From Candidatus Omnitrophota bacterium (GTDB taxonomy: Bacteria > Omnitrophota > Gorgyraeia > 2-01-FULL-45-10), in NCBI GenBank assembly GCA_030695725.1, contig JAUYPN010000014.1, positions 2,084 to 66,083 of the forward strand: a DNA stretch of 64,000 nucleotides. Reading direction: 5' to 3'. The notes below the pieces were generated by a model. It had not been told where the DNA came from, searched no databases, and saw only the letters and a list, made by a program, of their open reading frames with translations. The position numbers were made by a program, and so were the translations under genes. Numbering within the stretch: the first letter of the stretch is position 1; the number at the start of each line of letters is the position of its first letter. Shown here in pieces: positions 1-5,671 of the stretch.

Positions 1-1
1 G

Positions 2-1573
2 GAAGAATTATCAAATATTTATGAAAAAGCTTCCAGAAGAGCCGCAATGTTTATGTCGGCGTCGCGTGGAAATGAGTTTATTGATAGAGCATATAAAACA
101 TTGAATTTATCTGAGGCAAGCGAAGGGGATAGACAAGAATACGTAGATCAAATTGAAAAAACTAATACGCTAAGAGCCACAGTTAGGCAGTTCGTTAGTG
201 AAACAGCAAAAATGAGATTAGAAAAGCCACGCCAAGCTTTACAAGTAAGGGCAACGGATGTGATCGATGTTGGTCAAAAGGAAATGGCTGCAAGTCAATA
301 TTCTCCTCAAAATACTTACCTATGCCGATACTTACAATCTTTTGGGGCAGCAGATTGCGTTGTTTGCACCTTTTATCATCATAATTCTAGAAAAGGGGCG
401 ATGATACATATCGATGGAATGACTAATGTATTGGTTTCTATTCAAAACCTCTTAAATATATTGGATGTCCCCCCAGGTGATCTTGAAATTCGCTTGCTAG
501 GGGGTTATGACGTAGATTTTATCAGTCGTATTTTGGAAACATTTACCATATTAGGGATAAAACCAAAAATTTTAGAGTTAGAAATGAATGCATCTGGTAG
601 CAGTAAAGCCATAATATTAGATCTAATCAATGGTGAAACTTACGATATGATTGGAAGGCCTGTAGCAGCGACTCAAGATGATCTTTCGGTTTTACGCGCA
701 CAATTACCAGGTCCCGCGCATTTAATTCCATTAGGATTAGTTCGCCATGTATTACATGATGAAAAAGCGGCATCTTCATTTGAGGAAAAACGCCTATTCG
801 CAGAAAATACCGATGAAAAGAGATTGCTTACAAAGTCAGCCGAATATCTTGGAAATAGCCCAGTAAACGAACGCATAGACTTATCAGCGATACCCAAAGA
901 AGGATTGACAAAGGAACAGCAGGATGAGCAGCTTGAAAAGAATATGGAAACCCTTGCGCGTCAAATCGCATGGCATAATACCTTTGGTCTAAATATTCGG
1001 TATATACTTGAAAACGATACGCAGGATAAAAGAGCTCACGAAATATTGAAGAATAAAATAATAGAACTTGGCAAGATACCGGGGGTCAATGCTGAAGAAC
1101 TATTATCCCGAATAAATACTCCGCATACTGGAGAGAATGTAATAGAAGTTGTATTGCGAAGCATCGAAAACGTCAAGGCGATGCAACGGGTAGGAGATAG
1201 AGAATTTGTAGTTGCCCTCAAGGACGATTTTACGAAAGAAGGCGTATCTATCCCGAACTACACTGCGGCTTCAGCTATAGGCTTGTCGATAGCCTCGCTA
1301 CGAATAGCTAAAGAAAAAGAAGCCAAACCGGATGAATATAACAGGCTAAAGGATAAGGTCTTTAGAGTGATTAAATCCATATATGAGCGTTACAATATTG
1401 TTACAAAAGAAGACGGTTTTACGCTGGATGACCTAGAATTCATGGTAACCGGATGTCCTGAAAATAAGATATATTACGCGATCCTCTATGCCTTACCACC
1501 TATCGCAAAAGACCTCGTAGAACGAATAGGCAGATATCACGAAACACTGCATTTAATACTACAAGCTGCATAA
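2..1573 (+). CDS. 3' part of a larger ORF running off the left window edge; contains a CheD-like (glutamine deamidase fold) domain, remainder unknown
   Basis: The frame is stop-free from nt 2 (EELSNIYEKASRRAA precedes the ATG at 47), so the ATG is probably internal. Track residues ~95-200 read GAADCVVCTFYHHNSRKGAMIHIDG ... LEIRLLGG ... ILGIKPKILELEMNASGSSKAIILDLINGE. This is colinear with CheD signatures (GSCVAVC..KVGAMAHVMLP, LEAKIxGGA, FGIK...GG..ARSV.YN.ETG). Cys104-to-His121 spacing is 17 residues, as for the CheD catalytic Cys and His. Confidence 0.55.
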   Translation, partial: EELSNIYEKASRRAAMFMSASRGNEFIDRAYKTLNLSEASEGDRQEYVDQIEKTNTLRATVRQFVSETAKMRLEKPRQALQVRATDVIDVGQKEMAASQYSPQNTYLCRYLQSFGAADCVVCTFYHHNSRKGAMIHIDGMTNVLVSIQNLLNILDVPPGDLEIRLLGGYDVDFISRILETFTILGIKPKILELEMNASGSSKAIILDLINGETYDMIGRPVAATQDDLSVLRAQLPGPAHLIPLGLVRHVLHDEKAASSFEEKRLFAENTDEKRLLTKSAEYLGNSPVNERIDLSAIPKEGLTKEQQDEQLEKNMETLARQIAWHNTFGLNIRYILENDTQDKRAHEILKNKIIELGKIPGVNAEELLSRINTPHTGENVIEVVLRSIENVKAMQRVGDREFVVALKDDFTKEGVSIPNYTAASAIGLSIASLRIAKEKEAKPDEYNRLKDKVFRVIKSIYERYNIVTKEDGFTLDDLEFMVTGCPENKIYYAILYALPPIAKDLVERIGRYHETLHLILQAA

Positions 1574-1588
1574 TTTCGAAGAAAACCA

Positions 1589-1620
1589 CAAATGTCCGCC
1601 CTCCCGCACCCGGACATTTG
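1589..1620 (+). terminator. Perfect 10-bp hairpin immediately after the ORF stop (possible terminator, no U-tract)
   Basis: CAAATGTCCG (1589-1598) and CGGACATTTG (1611-1620) are exact reverse complements with a 12-nt loop, 16 nt after the stop at 1573. Confidence 0.4.
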
Positions 1621-1714
1621 CATCTATTGACAGTTAAAAGAGTTACGTATTTTTTACCCTAAAAAGACAGGACATTTCGGACATTCTTGCAGCACAATTG
1701 TCTGTCCGGACATC
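1591..1714. repeat. Cluster of GGACAT(T/C) heptamers (iteron-like)
   Basis: GGACATT at 1612, 1670 and 1679. GGACATC at 1708. Inverted AATGTCC at 1591. GTCCGGAC palindrome at 1705-1712. Confidence 0.4.
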
Positions 1715-2166
1715 GTGTCAACCACCTCTCTGATCTACACAATCTTCCCAATATTCAGCGATATTGCTGTATAATAAGGACGTGTTCAATGTAGAGATAT
1801 AGTTATTGCCTATACCTGCACGGGGAGCCAGTTTACAAATTACAGCGCACCGGAATTCGTCATTGCGCTGTAATGAAATACAGGAAAAGGGAGCTAAGCA
1901 GACGTCCTATTTAGGTACACCCTACTAACCCTTTCAATTCAAAAAACAGCAAAATAAATATTTTCAAAAATAATTGCAAGAATTTAGCCTCTTTTTCCGT
2001 CTTATATAGTACAGGGTATTGTAAGCCTTATATAAAGCGTAAAAGGAGATTTTATTATGCCTACCACAGAAACGGGACAACGCAAGAAGCTGTTGTAACT
2101 GATCGTATTGATGAGTACTTAACAATATATAGATCGGCTGAATCAGATGAGCCAATCGGGTTTAAG

Positions 2167-2373
2167 ATGAAAGATGTGCATGCGTTGATAGAAAAATATG
2201 GCTATGATACGATAGCTGTCCAAGCCGCTGTGACAGGCAAGAAGTTAGTGTTCGTTGTTGCTTTATTATTGTCGGCTTTTAGAGATTTGACACCTTTTAT
2301 AAATAGAACGCAGGGATATACAACGGCTTTAAATGTAGCTCCCAAATCCGATGGGGTGCTAATACCCTGCTAA
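2167..2373 (+). CDS. Small hypothetical protein (68 aa from the ATG; the frame is open further upstream without a canonical start)
   Basis: Track ORF followed by a good intrinsic terminator. The same frame reads on upstream as ...QEAVVTDRIDEYLTIYRSAESDEPIGFK. A 13-codon mini-ORF with a strong AAGGAG RBS (ATG 2057) lies in another frame, so this may be a frameshifted gene. Confidence 0.3.
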   Translation: MKDVHALIEKYGYDTIAVQAAVTGKKLVFVVALLLSAFRDLTPFINRTQGYTTALNVAPKSDGVLIPC

Positions 2374-2400
2374 TATAAAAGAAATGAGATGTGTTGTATA

Positions 2401-2432
2401 AAACCAAACACCTAAAAAGGTTTGGTTTTTTG
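2401..2432 (+). terminator. Rho-independent terminator
   Basis: AAACCAAAC / GTTTGGTTT stem with a 10-nt loop, followed by a T-run (gtttggttttttg). Confidence 0.7.
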
Positions 2433-2613
2433 TTTACTAAAGCACTAAATTAGCCTCTTCAAACAACACTTTTATAATACTTAGGTCAATTTCAAGGTCA
2501 AATCAATATCCCTGTTGCGGAATGCGTCATATACGGGGAGCCAAAATTAGTATAATCCTCTGTAAGTGCAAAAATAAGCGCTACAGCTTCTTATCTATGC
2601 TATAATTATCAAC

Positions 2614-3771
2614 GTGAAAATCTCGCATAATAAAAGATTGCTTTTTATCACGGCTCTTCTTGGCCTGTTTTTATTTTCCTTCTCTTCGCTATCCTTTGGC
2701 GGCGATCAGGCTGAATTTCATCCGGCAAAAGTGAAAGATATTTCCGACAGGAAATATGAACCTGCGGTGATAGAATTGCTGGATAACGCCAAGGAATCGA
2801 TCGTTATCTCCATGTATATAATTCAGGCAGATGAAAAAAGCCCGGTGCAATTACTCATAAAGGATCTGGAAGAGGCGCTTGACAGAGGCGTTTCGGTGGA
2901 TATATATCTGAATACGCGGTTTCAGGAAGGACGGGCTCTTGACGTAGACAAAAACGAGGCCTTTAATACTTTACGGAATAAAGGCGGGAGGATATTTGGC
3001 GTTACCCCTTCCGTTCGTATGCACGACAAGCTCATTATAGTGGATAATCGCTACGTGGTAATAGGAAGCGCCAATTGGAGCATATCGAGCCTGAAGAGTA
3101 ACTATGAAGATGTGACGCTGATAGATTCGCCGGAACTTGCCAAAGACATGTTTATCCGTGTCAGGCGGCATACCCTGAAGGGTGACGAACCGAATAAACC
3201 GGAAAAGGACCGCAAAATAAGAAGGTCTGTAATTTTGAGCGACGATAGCATTGTAGCTTTTGACGACGATCTGTTGACAGATAAAACATTATTCCCGCGC
3301 ATGATGACCGAGCGGGACGCGCGAGCTATGGACACCTATCTTTTGCTTAAAGCATATGCTTTCGAACAGGAGACAGGCGAATATTTTCTCTTTTTGGAGC
3401 AATTGGCTGTGGATCTGGGCATGCCGGCCGACTGGAGCGACTCAGCCTTAAGGCGGCAGGCGATAAAGGCATTGATTAAACTTAAAAACAGGTATAAATT
3501 AATCGATGTCAATTTTAAACACGGGAAAGACGCATGGATAACGCTCAGGGATCTTTCCGCGAACAATTTTGTCTTTAAAGGCAAGTTTTTAAATCCTGAA
3601 TATCTGTCGAAATTCAGCCAGTCAGCTAAATTCGTACTTTTCATAAAGGCATTGCTTGAGAAAGAAGGCGCGACATTTGATTCATTCACGCAGGAAGCGC
3701 TATGCAAGAGATTTAATATCAATAGAAAGACATTTAAAAAAGGCCTTGAGGAAATATTAAGAATTTTTTAG
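2614..3771 (+). CDS. Secreted phospholipase D-like / Nuc-family protein (single HKD motif) with a ~190-aa C-terminal extension of unknown function
   Basis: HDKLIIVDNRYVVIGSANWS matches HxK(x)4D(x)6GSxN. The N-terminus KRLLFITALLGLFLFSFSSLSFG looks like a Sec signal peptide. GTG start. Confidence 0.8.
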   Translation: MKISHNKRLLFITALLGLFLFSFSSLSFGGDQAEFHPAKVKDISDRKYEPAVIELLDNAKESIVISMYIIQADEKSPVQLLIKDLEEALDRGVSVDIYLNTRFQEGRALDVDKNEAFNTLRNKGGRIFGVTPSVRMHDKLIIVDNRYVVIGSANWSISSLKSNYEDVTLIDSPELAKDMFIRVRRHTLKGDEPNKPEKDRKIRRSVILSDDSIVAFDDDLLTDKTLFPRMMTERDARAMDTYLLLKAYAFEQETGEYFLFLEQLAVDLGMPADWSDSALRRQAIKALIKLKNRYKLIDVNFKHGKDAWITLRDLSANNFVFKGKFLNPEYLSKFSQSAKFVLFIKALLEKEGATFDSFTQEALCKRFNINRKTFKKGLEEILRIF

Positions 3772-3804
3772 CCTTTGCAAGGATTGTGTCACCCCCGGTG
3801 GCAC

Positions 3805-3829
3805 AAAAGATATTCTAATCAAGTTAGAA
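3805..3829. repeat. Left copy of a 25-bp direct repeat flanking the DUF1016 cassette
   Basis: AAAAGATATTCTAATCAAGTTAGAA. It contains the inverted repeat TTCTAA-N5-TTAGAA. It matches 5084-5108 with one mismatch. Confidence 0.85.
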
Positions 3830-3972
3830 CGGGTACATAACAATATGAGCTACGATGAGTTACGAAATAAACGTGCCCAGAGATATTTCATCTGTAGCAT
3901 TTAATATCTTAATGAGTTGCGTAAAGCGTCTGCAAACACATATGTGGAAAGCCAAATACAGGAGGTAGTTTT

Positions 3973-5085
3973 GTGAAAAGCAAACCGAAGAAACGGATAG
4001 CACTTTTAAAACAAAATCTTTCAGTAGACAAAACCTCGGGAAAATTATTTAACGATATCCGTTCTATGATAGATGCGATGCGCAATCAGGTGTCCCGCGT
4101 TGTAAACACAGGGCTTACGATGTTGTATTGGCACATTGGCGATAGAATACGAAAAGACATGCTGGGGCAGGAACGCGCGCAATACGGCGAAAAGATTGTT
4201 GCGACGTTGTCGCAACAATTAACAGTCGCATATGGCAAAGGATACACAAGAACGGCATTATCCCGCATGATTAACTTTGCGGAGAAATATCCAAAAAAAG
4301 AGATTGTTGCGATGCTATCGCAACAATTGGGGTGGAGCCACTTTGTTGAGCTTATACCCATAAAAGATAAATTGAAATGTGATTTTTACGCGGAAATGTG
4401 CAGGATAGAGCGATGGAGCGTCGAAACATTACGGAAAAAGATTAGCGGAATGCTTTTTGAGCGTACAGCGCTTTCAAAAAAGCCTAGAAAGCTTGCGGAA
4501 ATTGAAATCAAGGCGCTAAAGAACGAAGATTATATGACGCCTGATATAGCTTTTCGTGATCCATATTTTTTAGATTTCCTTGGATTGAAGGATACCTTCA
4601 GCGAAAGAGATTTAGAATCCGCGATAATAAAAGAGTTAGAGCGTTTTTTAGTTGAAATAGGCACGGATTTTTCTTTCATTGCAAGACAAAAGAGGATAAT
4701 AGTAGACGGGGAAGATTTTTATATTGATTTATTATTTTATCACAGAAGGCTGCGCTGTCTTGTGGCCATAGAATTAAAGATGGATAAATTCCGCCCGCAG
4801 GACAAAGGGCAAATAGAGCTATATTTAAGATGGCTTGAAAAATACGAGATGAGGCCCGGAGAAAATAAGCCAATAGGGCTTGTTCTTTGCGCCGCCAAAA
4901 AACATGAACAAATAGAGCTCTTGGAATTGGACAAAAGCGGAATACGAGTATCTGAATATTGGACGGTACTTCCTCCAAGGAATATTTTTAAGAAAAAACT
5001 GCATGAGATGGTAGAATTAGGAAGAAAATTATACGAGAGCCGAAATAATAGTGGCATAAAATGTGCAAACAAAAGCTTGAACTAA
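3973..5085 (+). CDS. DUF1016 / YhcG-family PD-(D/E)xK nuclease
   Basis: N-terminal helical region (MLYWHIGDRI, GWSHFVELI) and a C-terminal restriction-endonuclease-like core (GEDFYIDLLFYHRRLRCLVAIELK). AGGAGG lies 7 nt upstream of the GTG start. Confidence 0.85.
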   Translation: MKSKPKKRIALLKQNLSVDKTSGKLFNDIRSMIDAMRNQVSRVVNTGLTMLYWHIGDRIRKDMLGQERAQYGEKIVATLSQQLTVAYGKGYTRTALSRMINFAEKYPKKEIVAMLSQQLGWSHFVELIPIKDKLKCDFYAEMCRIERWSVETLRKKISGMLFERTALSKKPRKLAEIEIKALKNEDYMTPDIAFRDPYFLDFLGLKDTFSERDLESAIIKELERFLVEIGTDFSFIARQKRIIVDGEDFYIDLLFYHRRLRCLVAIELKMDKFRPQDKGQIELYLRWLEKYEMRPGENKPIGLVLCAAKKHEQIELLELDKSGIRVSEYWTVLPPRNIFKKKLHEMVELGRKLYESRNNSGIKCANKSLN

Positions 5086-5108
5086 AAGATATTCTAATCA
5101 GGTTAGAA
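5084..5108. repeat. Right copy of the 25-bp direct repeat (overlaps the DUF1016 stop codon)
   Basis: AAAAGATATTCTAATCAGGTTAGAA followed by ttgtttttt. The hairpin plus T-run resembles a weak terminator. Confidence 0.85.
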
Positions 5109-5131
5109 TTGTTTTTTAAGATAGGGTAAAA

Positions 5132-5671
5132 ATGGATGTAAAAATCAATTACAGCAATAAGCGCTCGCGCACGGTCAGCGCGCGCTTGATTGACGGAAAC
5201 TTACTGGTCAATGCGCCCGCAGGCCTGCCGCGCGAGCGCCTCGAGAAGATCATAGATAATTTTAAAGTAAGGTTCCAGCGAAGAAAATTAAAGAAAGAAT
5301 TGAATAAAGAACGGCCGCTCATCGAGATCGCCGCTAAACTTAATAATAAGTATTTCAATGGCAAATTAAAAATTAATTCAGTAGAATACTCTACCGGCCA
5401 GAATAGCATATTTGGATGCTGTAATTGTCGAGACGCGAACATACGCATATCGCACAGGTTAAGCCGGATGCCGGAGTGGGTACGGGACTGTGTCATAATT
5501 CATGAGATGGCGCACCTTATAGAGCCGAATCACGGGCCCGCGTTTTGGAATATTGTTTCCCGCTACGAACTGGCCGAGAGGGCAAAAGGATACCTCATGG
5601 CGGTCGGACTTGATAGCGAGAACGAGCAGGATCTCGAATTTCCGCAGCACAATACTAATCAGAAAACATGA
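5132..5671 (+). CDS. YgjP-like (DUF45, M48-related) metal-dependent hydrolase
   Basis: The zincin motif in VIIHEMAHLIEPNHGPAFW is the typical DUF45 signature HExxHLxExNH..FW. Confidence 0.8.
   Translation: MDVKINYSNKRSRTVSARLIDGNLLVNAPAGLPRERLEKIIDNFKVRFQRRKLKKELNKERPLIEIAAKLNNKYFNGKLKINSVEYSTGQNSIFGCCNCRDANIRISHRLSRMPEWVRDCVIIHEMAHLIEPNHGPAFWNIVSRYELAERAKGYLMAVGLDSENEQDLEFPQHNTNQKT

Follow-up and report, generated by a model that had tools for sequence, protein, structure and literature searches.

A DUF1016 nuclease gene at a doubled REP-type palindrome in Candidatus Omnitrophota: evidence for insertion with duplication of the target site

The DNA analysed here, referred to as the window, is a 64,000-nucleotide stretch of contig JAUYPN010000014.1 (assembly GCA_030695725.1) from a Candidatus Omnitrophota bacterium. 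The source is a metagenome-assembled draft of an incomplete genome (949 kb, 80 contigs, 5.6% contamination). Three genes lie at the locus on the forward strand, with open reading frames as described in the initial annotation: a PLD-like gene with a single HKD motif (2614-3771; Pfam PLDc_2, 80 bits) as the left neighbour of the site, a DUF1016/YhcG PD-(D/E)xK nuclease gene (3973-5085), and a DUF45/YgjP-like metallopeptidase gene (5132-5671; Pfam YgjP-like, 65 bits) as the right neighbour. The PLD-like gene showed weak similarity, below the cut-offs, to the NCBIfam DrmC/NucT models. Its orthologue in genome G017 (75%) lies in another context and is followed by an SPFH gene rather than DUF45; the PLD-like gene is itself an accessory gene. 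No recombinase was found among the seven ORFs scanned between 47 and 6887, and no Rfam family matched the region or the RAYT loci described below.

The DUF1016 gene is bracketed by two forward-strand copies of a 25-mer, AAAAGATATTCTAATCA(A/G)GTTAGAA, at 3805-3829 and 5084-5108, which match at 24 of 25 positions. When up to three mismatches were allowed, exactly two matches were obtained in the window, compared to none expected from 100 shuffles, and the claim that the pair exceeds chance holds. A search of the whole 949-kb assembly for further copies, as had been proposed, returned this pair only. The inverted repeat TTCTAA-N5-TTAGAA can be read directly in both copies, and TTGTTTTTT follows the right copy immediately on its 3' side and is absent after the left one, both as annotated. 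The left copy is composed of an 8-nt target flank, AAAAGATA, and a 17-nt REP palindrome, TTCTAATCAAGTTAGAA; its native flank is on the left only, where the hairpin GTGTCACCCCCGGTGGCAC occupies 3781-3804. The right copy has its native flank on the right only, a T-run and ribosome-binding region 5' of DUF45 (5109-5131) that is conserved in the contigs L179 and L180 and in genome G007. The last 2 nt of the DUF1016 stop codon, TAA at 5083-5085, already belong to the right copy.

The DUF1016 gene is intact and encodes 370 aa with two full-length Pfam domains, DUF1016_N at 150.3 bits (gathering score 32.8) and YhcG_C at 167.6 bits (gathering score 32.5), placing it within the family. A D...ELK motif is visible in the translation, and a search of the PDB by sequence gave no solved structure for the protein. 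Metagenomic genes in other contexts were 90-91% identical in protein and 88-92% in DNA, and paralogues within its own family reached at most 38% protein identity. Close relatives were found in three unrelated contexts: in L130 within a type I R-M operon, in L131 beside a mod stump, and in L167 within radC. The G+C content was 38-41% at the gene versus 45-50% downstream. The DNA homology begins at 3945 in L167 and at 3961 in L130 and L131, showing that the conserved ribosome-binding region (3945-3972) travels with the gene, and it ends in all three at 5057-5081, the edge of the right 25-mer. The comparisons indicate that the gene was acquired horizontally and is of foreign origin.

On either side of the gene the inserted DNA is irregular. 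The orphan leader (3830-3944) had no match in L130, L131, L167, R-M islands or 400 Omnitrophota genomes, and no promoter-like site was found on its forward strand. The right end is formed by ATGTGCAAACAAAAGCTTGAACTAA (MCKQKLEL; 5061-5085, forward strand), 25 nt left over from a type III mod methyltransferase gene; this stump matches ATGAGTAAACAAAAACTTGAATTAA (MSKQKLELTWIGK) of the mod gene in L165. The same stump follows the DUF1016 gene in L131 with no DUF45 nearby, indicating that the stump can travel with the gene. The initial annotation had described a single-gene cassette; one intact gene with its own ribosome-binding region is indeed present, but the piece is ragged, ends in a gene stump and has no defined ends. 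DUF1016 is the only long ORF inside, and no inverted repeat pairs the ends. The 1,254 bp contain neither a transposase with terminal inverted repeats, as in an insertion sequence or transposon, nor an ORF for a site-specific integrase, as in a genomic island. Within the coding sequence of DUF1016_N there are two in-frame DNA palindromes, the first, ATTGTTGCGACGTTGTCGCAACAAT, at 4195-4219 and the second at 4303-4327. The position of the second was conserved in 22 of the 22 DUF1016 genes examined; across these genes 85% of cells were paired, compared to 56% in shuffles, with compensatory changes at 12 of 13 pairs.

An empty site was sought as the initial annotation had advised, and it was found in two independent metagenome contigs, L179 from ENA and L180 from JGI (samples ERZ27245787 and JGI 3300013089). 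In both contigs the left flank, one 25-mer, the right flank and DUF45 are colinear, with the flanks joined through the single 25-mer, and DUF45 is 92% identical to that of the window. The in-silico empty site of the window aligned with these contigs over 556 nt at 90% identity, including the T-run and DUF45. On the left, window 3780-3807 matched L179 91-118 at 25 of 28 positions; the right 25-mer is colinear with L179 from 133-156 onwards and with the region upstream of DUF45 in G007, where the same REP is preceded by AAAAAATAT. Each window copy keeps one native flank only, which fits insertion with duplication and not two independent repeat copies. REP position 6 is T in either window copy and C in L179 and G007, which fits duplication of the resident copy. 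Read against these contigs, the window amounts to the empty site with 1,254 bp of inserted DNA (3830-5083) and one further 25-mer added, bearing out the proposed insertion of a single gene with target duplication.

The empty site differs in part from the one predicted, in which PLD would directly precede DUF45. The single-copy site ahead of DUF45 was present; PLD was not seen next to DUF45, and an older DUF1016 remnant was found there in L179. The frame-0 translation of L179 across the left-flank stretch matched Pfam DUF1016_N with 38.1 bits (cut-off 32.8), and the hairpin at 3781-3804 is a relic of that earlier DUF1016 gene, now destroyed, and corresponds to its conserved in-frame palindrome. 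DUF45 orthologues were present in only 3 of 40 family genomes, and the empty-site search in species representatives was not decisive; in G033 no REP was found upstream of DUF45. The exact 25-mer had no match in the metagenome contig collection and matched only the G007 contig in the genome contig collection, and these public scans gave no case of AAAAGATAT plus REP at unlinked loci of close relatives.

The core of the 25-mer, with its 17-nt palindrome, matches a family-wide REP, TCTAAYCWGGTTAGA, and the pattern scans indicate that the duplicated site is a REP-type palindrome dispersed in Omnitrophota family f1. Its canonical form in relatives is TCTAACCWGGTTAGA, with or without a third half-site TAACCTG. 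Copy numbers reached 44, 26, 23 and 16 per f1 genome and ranged from 0 to 44 within one genus, with only 4 copies in the window's own assembly; the reversed control pattern gave none in f1 and a single match in G041, outside f1. The repeats are mainly extragenic, as 48 of 58 unique sites lay outside the deeper parts of frames of 150 codons or more. Inverted doublets resembling REPINs were also observed: most listed pairs had CCAGG followed by CCTGG, 24-36 bp from start to start, with the exception of G022:C82, which had CCAGG in both arms. Neither a GTAG nor a CGTC tag was found in the REP unit TTAACCTGRCAAATCTAACCAGGTTAGAAT, which makes this a REP-like family outside the two tagged groups of PMC3733652. 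A literature search on the palindrome returned no relevant match.

The palindrome is associated with a gene for a REP-associated tyrosine transposase (RAYT), which is bracketed by two REPs about 600 bp apart in G005, G017 and G026, representing three genera. These orthologues are 76-80% identical and score 88 bits against the RAYT model NCBIfam NF047646 (cut-off 80), while the IS200 model stays below its cut-off. In the window's incomplete assembly no cognate RAYT was found, the best Y1 paralogue being 30% identical. The REP core often lies just 5' of ribosome-binding sites, with tpiA, thrC, trkA and tRNA genes among the cases. Direct REP copies in G033 enclose a PIN toxin with a Phd-type antitoxin, a DUF3800 gene and an I42 inhibitor; the DUF3800 unit together with both REPs is missing from all congeners at the orthologous tRNA-ptsN locus. 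Two other readings of the palindrome were rejected. A promoter or operator (-35/-10-like TTAACC-N18-TAGAAT) was rejected as the main explanation because a ribosome-binding site often starts right after the -10-like hexamer, the copy number varies from 0 to 44 within a genus, and the RAYT gene is bracketed by the repeats. A split REPIN doublet, with the insert between the arms as in G007, was rejected because the window copies are both direct and share the same left flank.

The site had also been described as terminator-like. A hairpin and a T-run are present at the right copy, but the hairpin folds only weakly, with z = -1.0 and about -3.4 to -4.2 kcal/mol as DNA, and the sequence is a member of the REP family. 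An intrinsic terminator scan, which looks for a G+C-rich stem with a T-run, called neither 25-mer copy. The hairpin at 3781-3804 gave a DNA fold of -10.7 kcal/mol (z = -2.9). The right REP and T-run may act as at most a weak attenuator before DUF45, and the DUF1016 gene is probably read through from the co-directional PLD gene. The doubt raised at the outset, that the 25-mer might be a common motif, is half justified: the site is a dispersed REP tied to a RAYT transposase, yet the insertion signature is present.

Elsewhere, DUF45 is an accessory gene of type III R-M operons: orthologues of 85-89% come immediately after res in mod-res operons. Further ones, at 84-92%, occupy other unrelated contexts. 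In G007 an AlbA_2-type gene is followed by REPs and then DUF45, and the order in L163 is AlbA_2, res, DUF45; the 295-nt spacer of G007 showed no homology to res or to the window leader. Inserts with target duplications were also found at non-REP sites, where about 320 bp of radC in L167, 25 bp of the start of a macB-like gene in G060 and 83 bp of the end of comM in G005 were duplicated. Variable-length duplications at such targets argue for a general repair or replication route. Strong cases of flanking direct repeats were obtained at 8 of 24 DUF1016 loci and at about 8 of 50 other accessory-gene loci, a pattern of some enrichment at DUF1016 loci that is not exclusive to them.

The data show that a foreign piece of DNA was inserted at the REP hairpin and that 25 bp were duplicated; the event was probably host-mediated and illegitimate. 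The piece, made up of the orphan leader, the DUF1016 gene with its ribosome-binding site and the first 25 nt of the mod gene that came next in the donor, entered immediately 3' of the resident REP, ahead of DUF45 (3830-5083), and the 25-bp stretch containing the REP was doubled during insertion, leaving one copy on each side. Two routes may be envisaged: a stalled replication fork could have switched template and re-copied the REP, or a staggered break across the REP could have captured a stray fragment, followed by filling in of the gap. The ragged, non-repeated ends and the gene stump look like a one-off illegitimate event at a hairpin-forming site, and we infer that no element-encoded recombinase made the insertion. 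Several observations sit less easily with this explanation. The right junction shares only about 2 nt, and the duplication stops precisely where the palindrome does on the right, which seems neater than chance illegitimate recombination would give and hints at a structure- or sequence-specific cut; the several other single genes found between direct REPs in the family would fit a REP-specific mechanism. As to polarity, L179 could derive from a window-like allele by deletion between two REPs.

A bolder explanation, which we regard as unlikely, is that RAYT, an HUH single-strand enzyme, captured a REP-carrying circle or single-stranded DNA (REP, leader and DUF1016) at the resident REP, making REP-gene-REP units mobilisable modules and an HUH analogue of integron cassettes or cargo-bearing IS200/IS605 elements. 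The RAYT gene in G005, G017 and G026 has the same direct REP-gene-REP layout, genes and gene pairs occupy it in G033, the DUF3800 unit is absent with both REPs from the congeners, and the duplication stops exactly at the palindrome edge. On the other hand, the duplicated 8 nt to the left of the palindrome belong to the target, since they align to DUF1016_N in L179 and lie outside the REP consensus; the REP is present at none of the donor-like DUF1016 loci; and the same insert-plus-duplication architecture occurs at non-REP targets. The missing cognate RAYT also speaks against capture, as weak evidence in an incomplete assembly. In IS200/IS605-type transposition by a Y1 transposase, both hairpins belong to the element, the empty site has no hairpin, and no target duplication is made.

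It is improbable that the locus is a single decayed R-M island, in which an ancestor of the order DUF1016-mod-res-DUF45 lost mod and res and the REPs came to the scar only secondarily, as passengers. Three features would agree with such decay: DUF1016 and DUF45 are separated by a stump from the 5' end of a type III mod gene, the DUF45 genes nearest to this one on long contigs directly follow res of mod-res operons, and the gene order of G007 resembles that of L163. However, L179 and L180 join the outer flanks of the window through one REP, so that what lies between them in the window behaves like an insertion; the order DUF1016-mod-res-DUF45 was not found on any contig; L131 has DUF1016 and the mod stump without DUF45 nearby; and two identical 25-mers with one native flank each would be left unexplained.

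Very little probability attaches to two independent copies of a common motif, whether by a local REP hop or as a shared operator or terminator, with no insertion at all. Many copies of the core palindrome do occur in the family, often just 5' of ribosome-binding sites, but the identity runs 8 nt past the REP core into target-specific sequence, 949 kb hold only the two copies, and a hop would have left a source copy with both of its native flanks, which neither copy has; the empty-site comparison refutes this reading in large part. An assembly artefact that fused two strains at the 25-mer, as might be suspected in a contaminated metagenome-assembled draft of 80 contigs, is hardly credible, as the final k-mers of assemblers are usually longer than 25 bp, the sample would still need to contain both types of junction, and similar insert-plus-duplication layouts were found in other assemblies.

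If illegitimate recombination at a hairpin is all that occurred, the locus is a clear but ordinary example of defence island assembly. It is rare in uncultured bacteria to find a single-gene insertion together with its empty allele, and the two alleles here show base by base how a defence-type nuclease gene from an R-M locus landed at a REP and doubled it. They add to the evidence that DUF1016 and DUF45 move as minimal units of ribosome-binding site and ORF with target duplications of variable length. There is also a slim chance that Omnitrophota REPs serve as landing or exchange sites at which single-strand cutting and joining by RAYT captures, and perhaps excises, REP-bounded single genes. 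The candidates would be DUF1016, the PIN toxin/antitoxin, DUF3800 and peptidase inhibitor genes of G033, and the RAYT gene itself. If true, an HUH enzyme would underlie a cassette platform in the form of REP/RAYT, which to our knowledge no REP system has been shown to be. On the same slim chance, the DUF1016 nuclease, whose own gene carries a conserved palindrome, might cut palindromes and thereby promote its own insertion at one. REPs are known substrates of RAYT enzymes as well as landing sites of insertion sequences, and a REP doubled around foreign cargo is a concrete substrate with which the role of REP/RAYT in gene movement can be tested in vitro.

The repeats were compared with the REP/REPIN-RAYT systems, namely the REPINs of Pseudomonas fluorescens SBW25 and REP/BIME-yafM of E. 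coli (PMC3116915, PMC3337134, PMC3733652, PMC3479197). In common with these, the Omnitrophota repeats are short, scattered, mostly intergenic palindromes occurring as singlets and inverted doublets, their copy number varies widely among relatives, and they bracket a Y1/HUH gene that is present in one copy and scores above the cut-off of the RAYT model. They also supply the stop codons of neighbouring ORFs and overlap the 3' end of RAYT, as reported for GTAG REPs (PMC3733652). They differ in having a near-perfect 15-17-nt palindrome core with a third half-site and no GTAG/CGTC tag, and the REPs around the Omnitrophota RAYT are direct, not inverted. A REP doubled around an unrelated foreign gene is undescribed in PMC3116915, PMC3337134, PMC3733652 and PMC3479197.

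As with REP-targeting insertion sequences, a REP palindrome is the landing site for incoming DNA. Those elements, IS1397 and ISKpn1 included, are autonomous, encode a transposase, have inverted ends and make duplications a few bp long, whereas the window insert has no transposase or inverted ends, consists of a fragment with a nuclease gene and is flanked by a 25-bp duplication of the whole REP. REPs have been reported as targets of insertion sequences (PMC3733652), and ISPpu9 targets REPs in P. putida (PMC8450116). Unlike the IS200/IS605 arrangement, the empty site here keeps one hairpin, and 8 nt of non-REP flank were duplicated with it. Like an integron cassette, the insert brings one gene that has a ribosome-binding site but no promoter, and the hairpin-forming sites at its boundaries sit tightly between co-directional genes. 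Integron cassettes are recombined by IntI between attC and attI or attC, and attC sites of 57-141 nt contain R and L boxes and extrahelical bases, whereas the boundary repeat in the window measures 25 nt, forms a stem of 6-7 bp and lacks the R/L box architecture, the insert carries no IntI gene, one end is a gene stump, and the duplicated site includes ordinary target sequence.

CRISPR spacer acquisition duplicates the repeat, and casposons make 14-15-bp target duplications. The doubling of a whole, partly palindromic unit of about 25 bp around new DNA may be likened to these, and duplication of the whole unit on both sides implies cuts on opposite strands at its two edges; with no Cas1, no array and a coding insert of 1.25 kb, the likeness is an analogy of geometry only. 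The literature describes DUF1016/YhcG genes that hitch-hike in R-M loci and on mobile elements (PMC9881135, PMC4316617, PMC1189080). The window gene agrees with that literature in being a full-length member, with its closest kin placed among the core genes of type I R-M systems or beside type III mod, and departs from it in being stranded without an R-M partner, with its arrival visible through the target duplication and the empty site.

The 25-mer AAAAGATATTCTAATCA(A/G)GTTAGAA occurs at 3805-3829 and 5084-5108 of the window, and the two copies differ at a single position (24/25 identical). A search of the window that tolerated up to three mismatches gave exactly two matches, compared with none in 100 shuffles, which confirmed the direct repeat of the initial annotation in position, identity and significance. 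The genome search for further copies proposed there was performed on the whole assembly (949 kb, 80 contigs) and again returned exactly these two. The three genes named around the repeats were recovered as well: a PLD-like gene at 2614-3771, a full-length DUF1016/YhcG PD-(D/E)xK nuclease gene at 3973-5085, whose stop codon and the right copy overlap by 2 nt, and a DUF45/YgjP-like metallopeptidase gene at 5132-5671.

The 25-mer has as its core a 15-17-nt palindrome, TCTAAYCWGGTTAGA, which is dispersed through the Candidatus Omnitrophota family holding this genome, with 44, 26, 23 and 16 copies in the related genomes G026, G033, G007 and G004, respectively, and no copy in further genomes of those genera; a reversed control pattern gave no match in the family. 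The palindrome was present in two forms, a singlet that includes a third half-site, TTAACCTGRCAAA-TCTAACCAGGTTAGA-AT, and an inverted doublet with arms 24-36 bp apart, and 48 of 58 unique sites were not deep within a long open frame. The singlet often gives the upstream gene its TAA stop and leaves only a few bases to the following gene's ribosome-binding site; tpiA, thrC, trkA and tRNA genes are among those downstream. Two such elements, about 600 bp apart, flank a 195-aa gene in G005, G017 and G026 (three genera). Its product matched Pfam Y1_Tnp, passed the NCBIfam equivalog model for REP-associated tyrosine transposase (RAYT; 88 bits, cut-off 80) and failed the IS200 model. An orthologue in G001 (59%) is preceded by a co-varied palindrome, TCTAATCTGATTAGA, and the T-for-C variant of the window copies is also present in the congeners G001 and G004. 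A search of the window's own assembly, which is incomplete, gave no cognate RAYT (best match 30% identical). The palindrome and the RAYT show the defining features of a REP/RAYT system, the GTAG/CGTC tag excepted (PMC3337134, PMC3733652).

The target had been described as terminator-like, a reading that proved too simple: the repeat hairpin was not called by the terminator scan, its folding was weak (-3.4 to -4.2 kcal/mol, z = -1.0), and the core of the 25-mer is a REP-type palindrome. A common motif at many loci, named in the initial annotation as an argument against insertion, was found for the core, which is dispersed family-wide, but not for the full 25-mer, which occurs only twice in the assembly and carries an insertion signature.

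Singlet REPs occupy whole gene junctions at several loci (L104, L064, L083, L107, L111 and others), where the TAA closes the gene before it and the next one (tpiA, thrC, trkA, an aminotransferase or a tRNA) has its ribosome-binding site and start codon within the following 8-20 nt. Locus L063 (G005:C40, 677-3990) has the order comM (Mg-chelatase-like), DUF1016, REP, RAYT, REP, after which 83 nt of the comM 3' end occur a second time. The comM stop codon sits in the REP third half-site in G017, G024, G026 and G030, giving the order comM-REP(-RAYT-REP); together with G005, these genomes indicate that the position of the RAYT locus next to comM is conserved.

The empty site that had been predicted for related DNA was found on two independent short contigs, L179 (ENA) and L180 (JGI), which carry the nearest relative of the DUF45 gene (92% protein identity). 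Upstream of DUF45, both have aggattgtgtcaccgctggtgacacaa, 14 nt and then AAAGATATTCTAACCAGGTTAGAATTGATTTTTCAAGATAGGTTATAAAATG, that is, the left flank of the window's left copy (25/28), one 25-mer and the right flank of the right copy running into DUF45. The window flanks joined in silico were colinear with L179 over 556 nt at 90%, plus a 28-nt left piece; the left copy therefore has a native left flank only, and the right copy a native right flank only. Such half-native copies are the signature of insertion with target duplication (or of recombination at the target). G007, from another genus, has AAAAAATAT and a REP, as a doublet, in front of a DUF45 pseudogene, so the REP at the DUF45 gene is older than the insertion. 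REP position 6 is T in both window copies and C in L179 and G007, which fits duplication of the resident copy.

The DUF1016 proteins closest to that of the window in a large protein collection were 90-91% identical, compared with only 38% for paralogues of the same bacterial family. At the DNA level, 3945/3961-5057/5081 matched three metagenomic contigs at 88-92% identity, each with an unrelated gene context: between an hsdS remnant and hsdM in a type I restriction-modification (R-M) operon (L130), adjoining a methyltransferase gene stump (L131), and inside radC (L167). Homology to these donor-like loci extends from 12-28 nt 5' of the start codon to the edge of the right 25-mer. The insert closes with 25 nt, ATGTGCAAACAAAAGCTTGAACTAA (5061-5085), that are the opening codons (MCKQKLEL) of a type III mod gene; mod in contig L165 begins ATGAGTAAACAAAAACTTGAATTAA (MSKQKLELTWIGK), and L131 has the same stump. 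The leader (3830-3944, 115 nt) had no match in any of the sequences searched, and the GC content of the insert was 38-41% versus 45-50% downstream. Judged by these sequence comparisons, the insert is of foreign origin. The initial annotation had proposed a single-gene cassette inserted with duplication of the site. Insertion and duplication were supported by L179 and L180, but the insert is not regarded as a defined cassette because it has no recombinase gene, no inverted ends and a gene stump at its end.

The stretch of L179 that matches the window's left flank (L179 91-132) has a frame-0 translation (GFTRRELFRMRQFYETYRIDRIVSPLVTQISWTNKDIL...) that hits Pfam DUF1016_N above the gathering score (38 bits). 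It is the remnant of an older DUF1016 gene, and the hairpin at 3781-3804 is thus a fossil of that gene's in-frame palindrome. The new DUF1016 gene was therefore inserted about 25 nt 3' of what is left of the old one. The 8 nt AAAAGATA duplicated together with the REP palindrome are ordinary target sequence outside the REP consensus.

At one codon-aligned position, immediately ahead of the conserved W-x-H motif, all 22 DUF1016/YhcG genes with DNA in alignment A1 have a DNA palindrome (stem of 8-13 bp, loop of 3 nt); in the window gene, in-frame palindromes lie at 4195-4219 and 4303-4327. The arms vary by lineage, with 85% of cells paired versus 56% in shuffles and 32-37% in slid controls, and compensatory changes were observed in 12 of 13 pairs. 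The near absence of G-U pairs favors DNA over RNA, and no Rfam match was obtained.

DUF1016-bearing inserts between direct copies of the target sequence, of other lengths, were also observed at non-REP targets in L167, G060 and G005. In L167 (Ga0209417_1029324, 1000-2832), a 91% orthologue of the window DUF1016 lies between a truncated 5' radC copy, which also includes ~20 nt from the end of the upstream AlbA_2-type gene, and full radC; the direct duplication covers ~320 bp of the radC 5' region at 94-95% identity, with 5-6 nt of microhomology, GGC(C)AT, at the right junction. G060, which belongs to a different family of the class, has a distant DUF1016 gene (32% identical) with a 25-bp direct repeat (24/25; G060:C230, L036 1367-1391 and 2615-2639) on either side; this site is not a REP, and the repeated sequence comprises the start codon and first 8 codons of the macB-like permease gene downstream. 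In G005, 83 bp of the comM 3' end are duplicated around DUF1016-REP-RAYT-REP. Strong flanking direct repeats were present at 8 of 24 DUF1016 loci and at about 8 of 50 other accessory-gene loci, and duplication-flanked insertion looks like a general route of small-gene gain in these bacteria. A non-coding, highly structured 219-nt sequence on both sides of the DUF1016 gene in G024:C36 (L030 1239-1456 and 2745-2962, 97.7% identity) may represent either a target duplication or a repeat element of its own.

The window thus holds an insertion with a 25-bp duplication, and its target is a REP. Since the same layout occurs at non-REP targets, and repeats occur at other accessory loci, host-mediated illegitimate insertion is favored; that a foreign DUF1016-bearing fragment was inserted in this way at a hairpin-forming site, the REP, with a 25-bp duplication is likely overall, and the exact route is proposed with much less confidence. 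A stalled fork may have switched template and re-copied the REP, or a staggered break may have been filled in after fragment capture.

RAYT-based capture of genes at REPs is rather doubtful as an alternative. The RAYT gene itself has the REP-gene-REP layout, and in G033 direct REPs enclose three further small units (L193 212-1011, L194 1487-2140 and L195 1326-1830), namely a PIN toxin with a Phd-type antitoxin, DUF3800 and a chagasin-type I42 inhibitor. The unit with DUF3800, both REPs included, is located after a tRNA gene and missing at the orthologous tRNA-ptsN locus in congeners, a comparison that covered every other family genome having upstream sequence to compare. However, the duplicated flank includes non-REP sequence, the donor-like loci are without REPs, duplications occur at non-REP targets, and this assembly yielded no cognate RAYT. 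Decay of one DUF1016-mod-res-DUF45 island, suggested by the mod stump in the insert and by DUF45 directly following res in L163 and L165, is very unlikely, since it leaves both the empty-site alignment and the two half-native copies unexplained, and, as L131 shows, the DUF1016 gene can carry the stump along. Two independent copies of the motif, rejected because each window copy keeps just one native flank, are exceedingly improbable, and so is an assembly artefact.

The DUF45 gene is itself a minimal moving unit: its orthologues are 83-92% identical, with homology starting only ~8-14 nt before the ATG (loci compared: window, L163-L166, L179-L182, L228-L231, L044, L045). It follows a REP in the window, L179 and G007, a type III res in L163 and L165, an ABC-2 permease in L229-L231 and a BNR protein in L182, and has other neighbors at further loci. 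In G033:C72, a 122-bp direct repeat (97.5% identity; L045 1363-1484 and 2697-2818) surrounds DUF45 and a Cys-rich gene that overlaps its stop. The PLD-like protein (2614-3771) is weakly similar, below threshold, to the DISARM DrmC and NucT nucleases. Its C-terminal extension of ~190 aa matched no Pfam domain above threshold and is kept in four homologues at 43-50% identity, among the full-length matches listed, since these match out to residue ~381. In the preceding 1 kb or so (1574-2613), no convincing gene was recognized, and the loci compared contain no homologue of it. The GC content of the entire stretch 1-5100 is 37-46% versus 45-50% downstream, which suggests that acquired and decayed genes form a larger mosaic here.

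The repeat family fits REP/REPIN-RAYT systems (PMC3116915, PMC3337134, PMC3733652, PMC3479197), but it is without the GTAG/CGTC tag, consists of a short, near-perfect palindrome plus a third half-site, and has the REPs around the RAYT gene in direct orientation. The REP, IS and DUF1016 literature searched yielded no account of an entire REP being duplicated around a gene fragment that is not an IS. Insertion sequences land at REPs (PMC3733652, PMC8450116); unlike the window insert, these are autonomous elements with short duplications. DUF1016 proteins are predicted PD-(D/E)xK nucleases (PMC1189080), and their genes hitch-hike in R-M loci and mobile elements (PMC9881135, PMC4316617).
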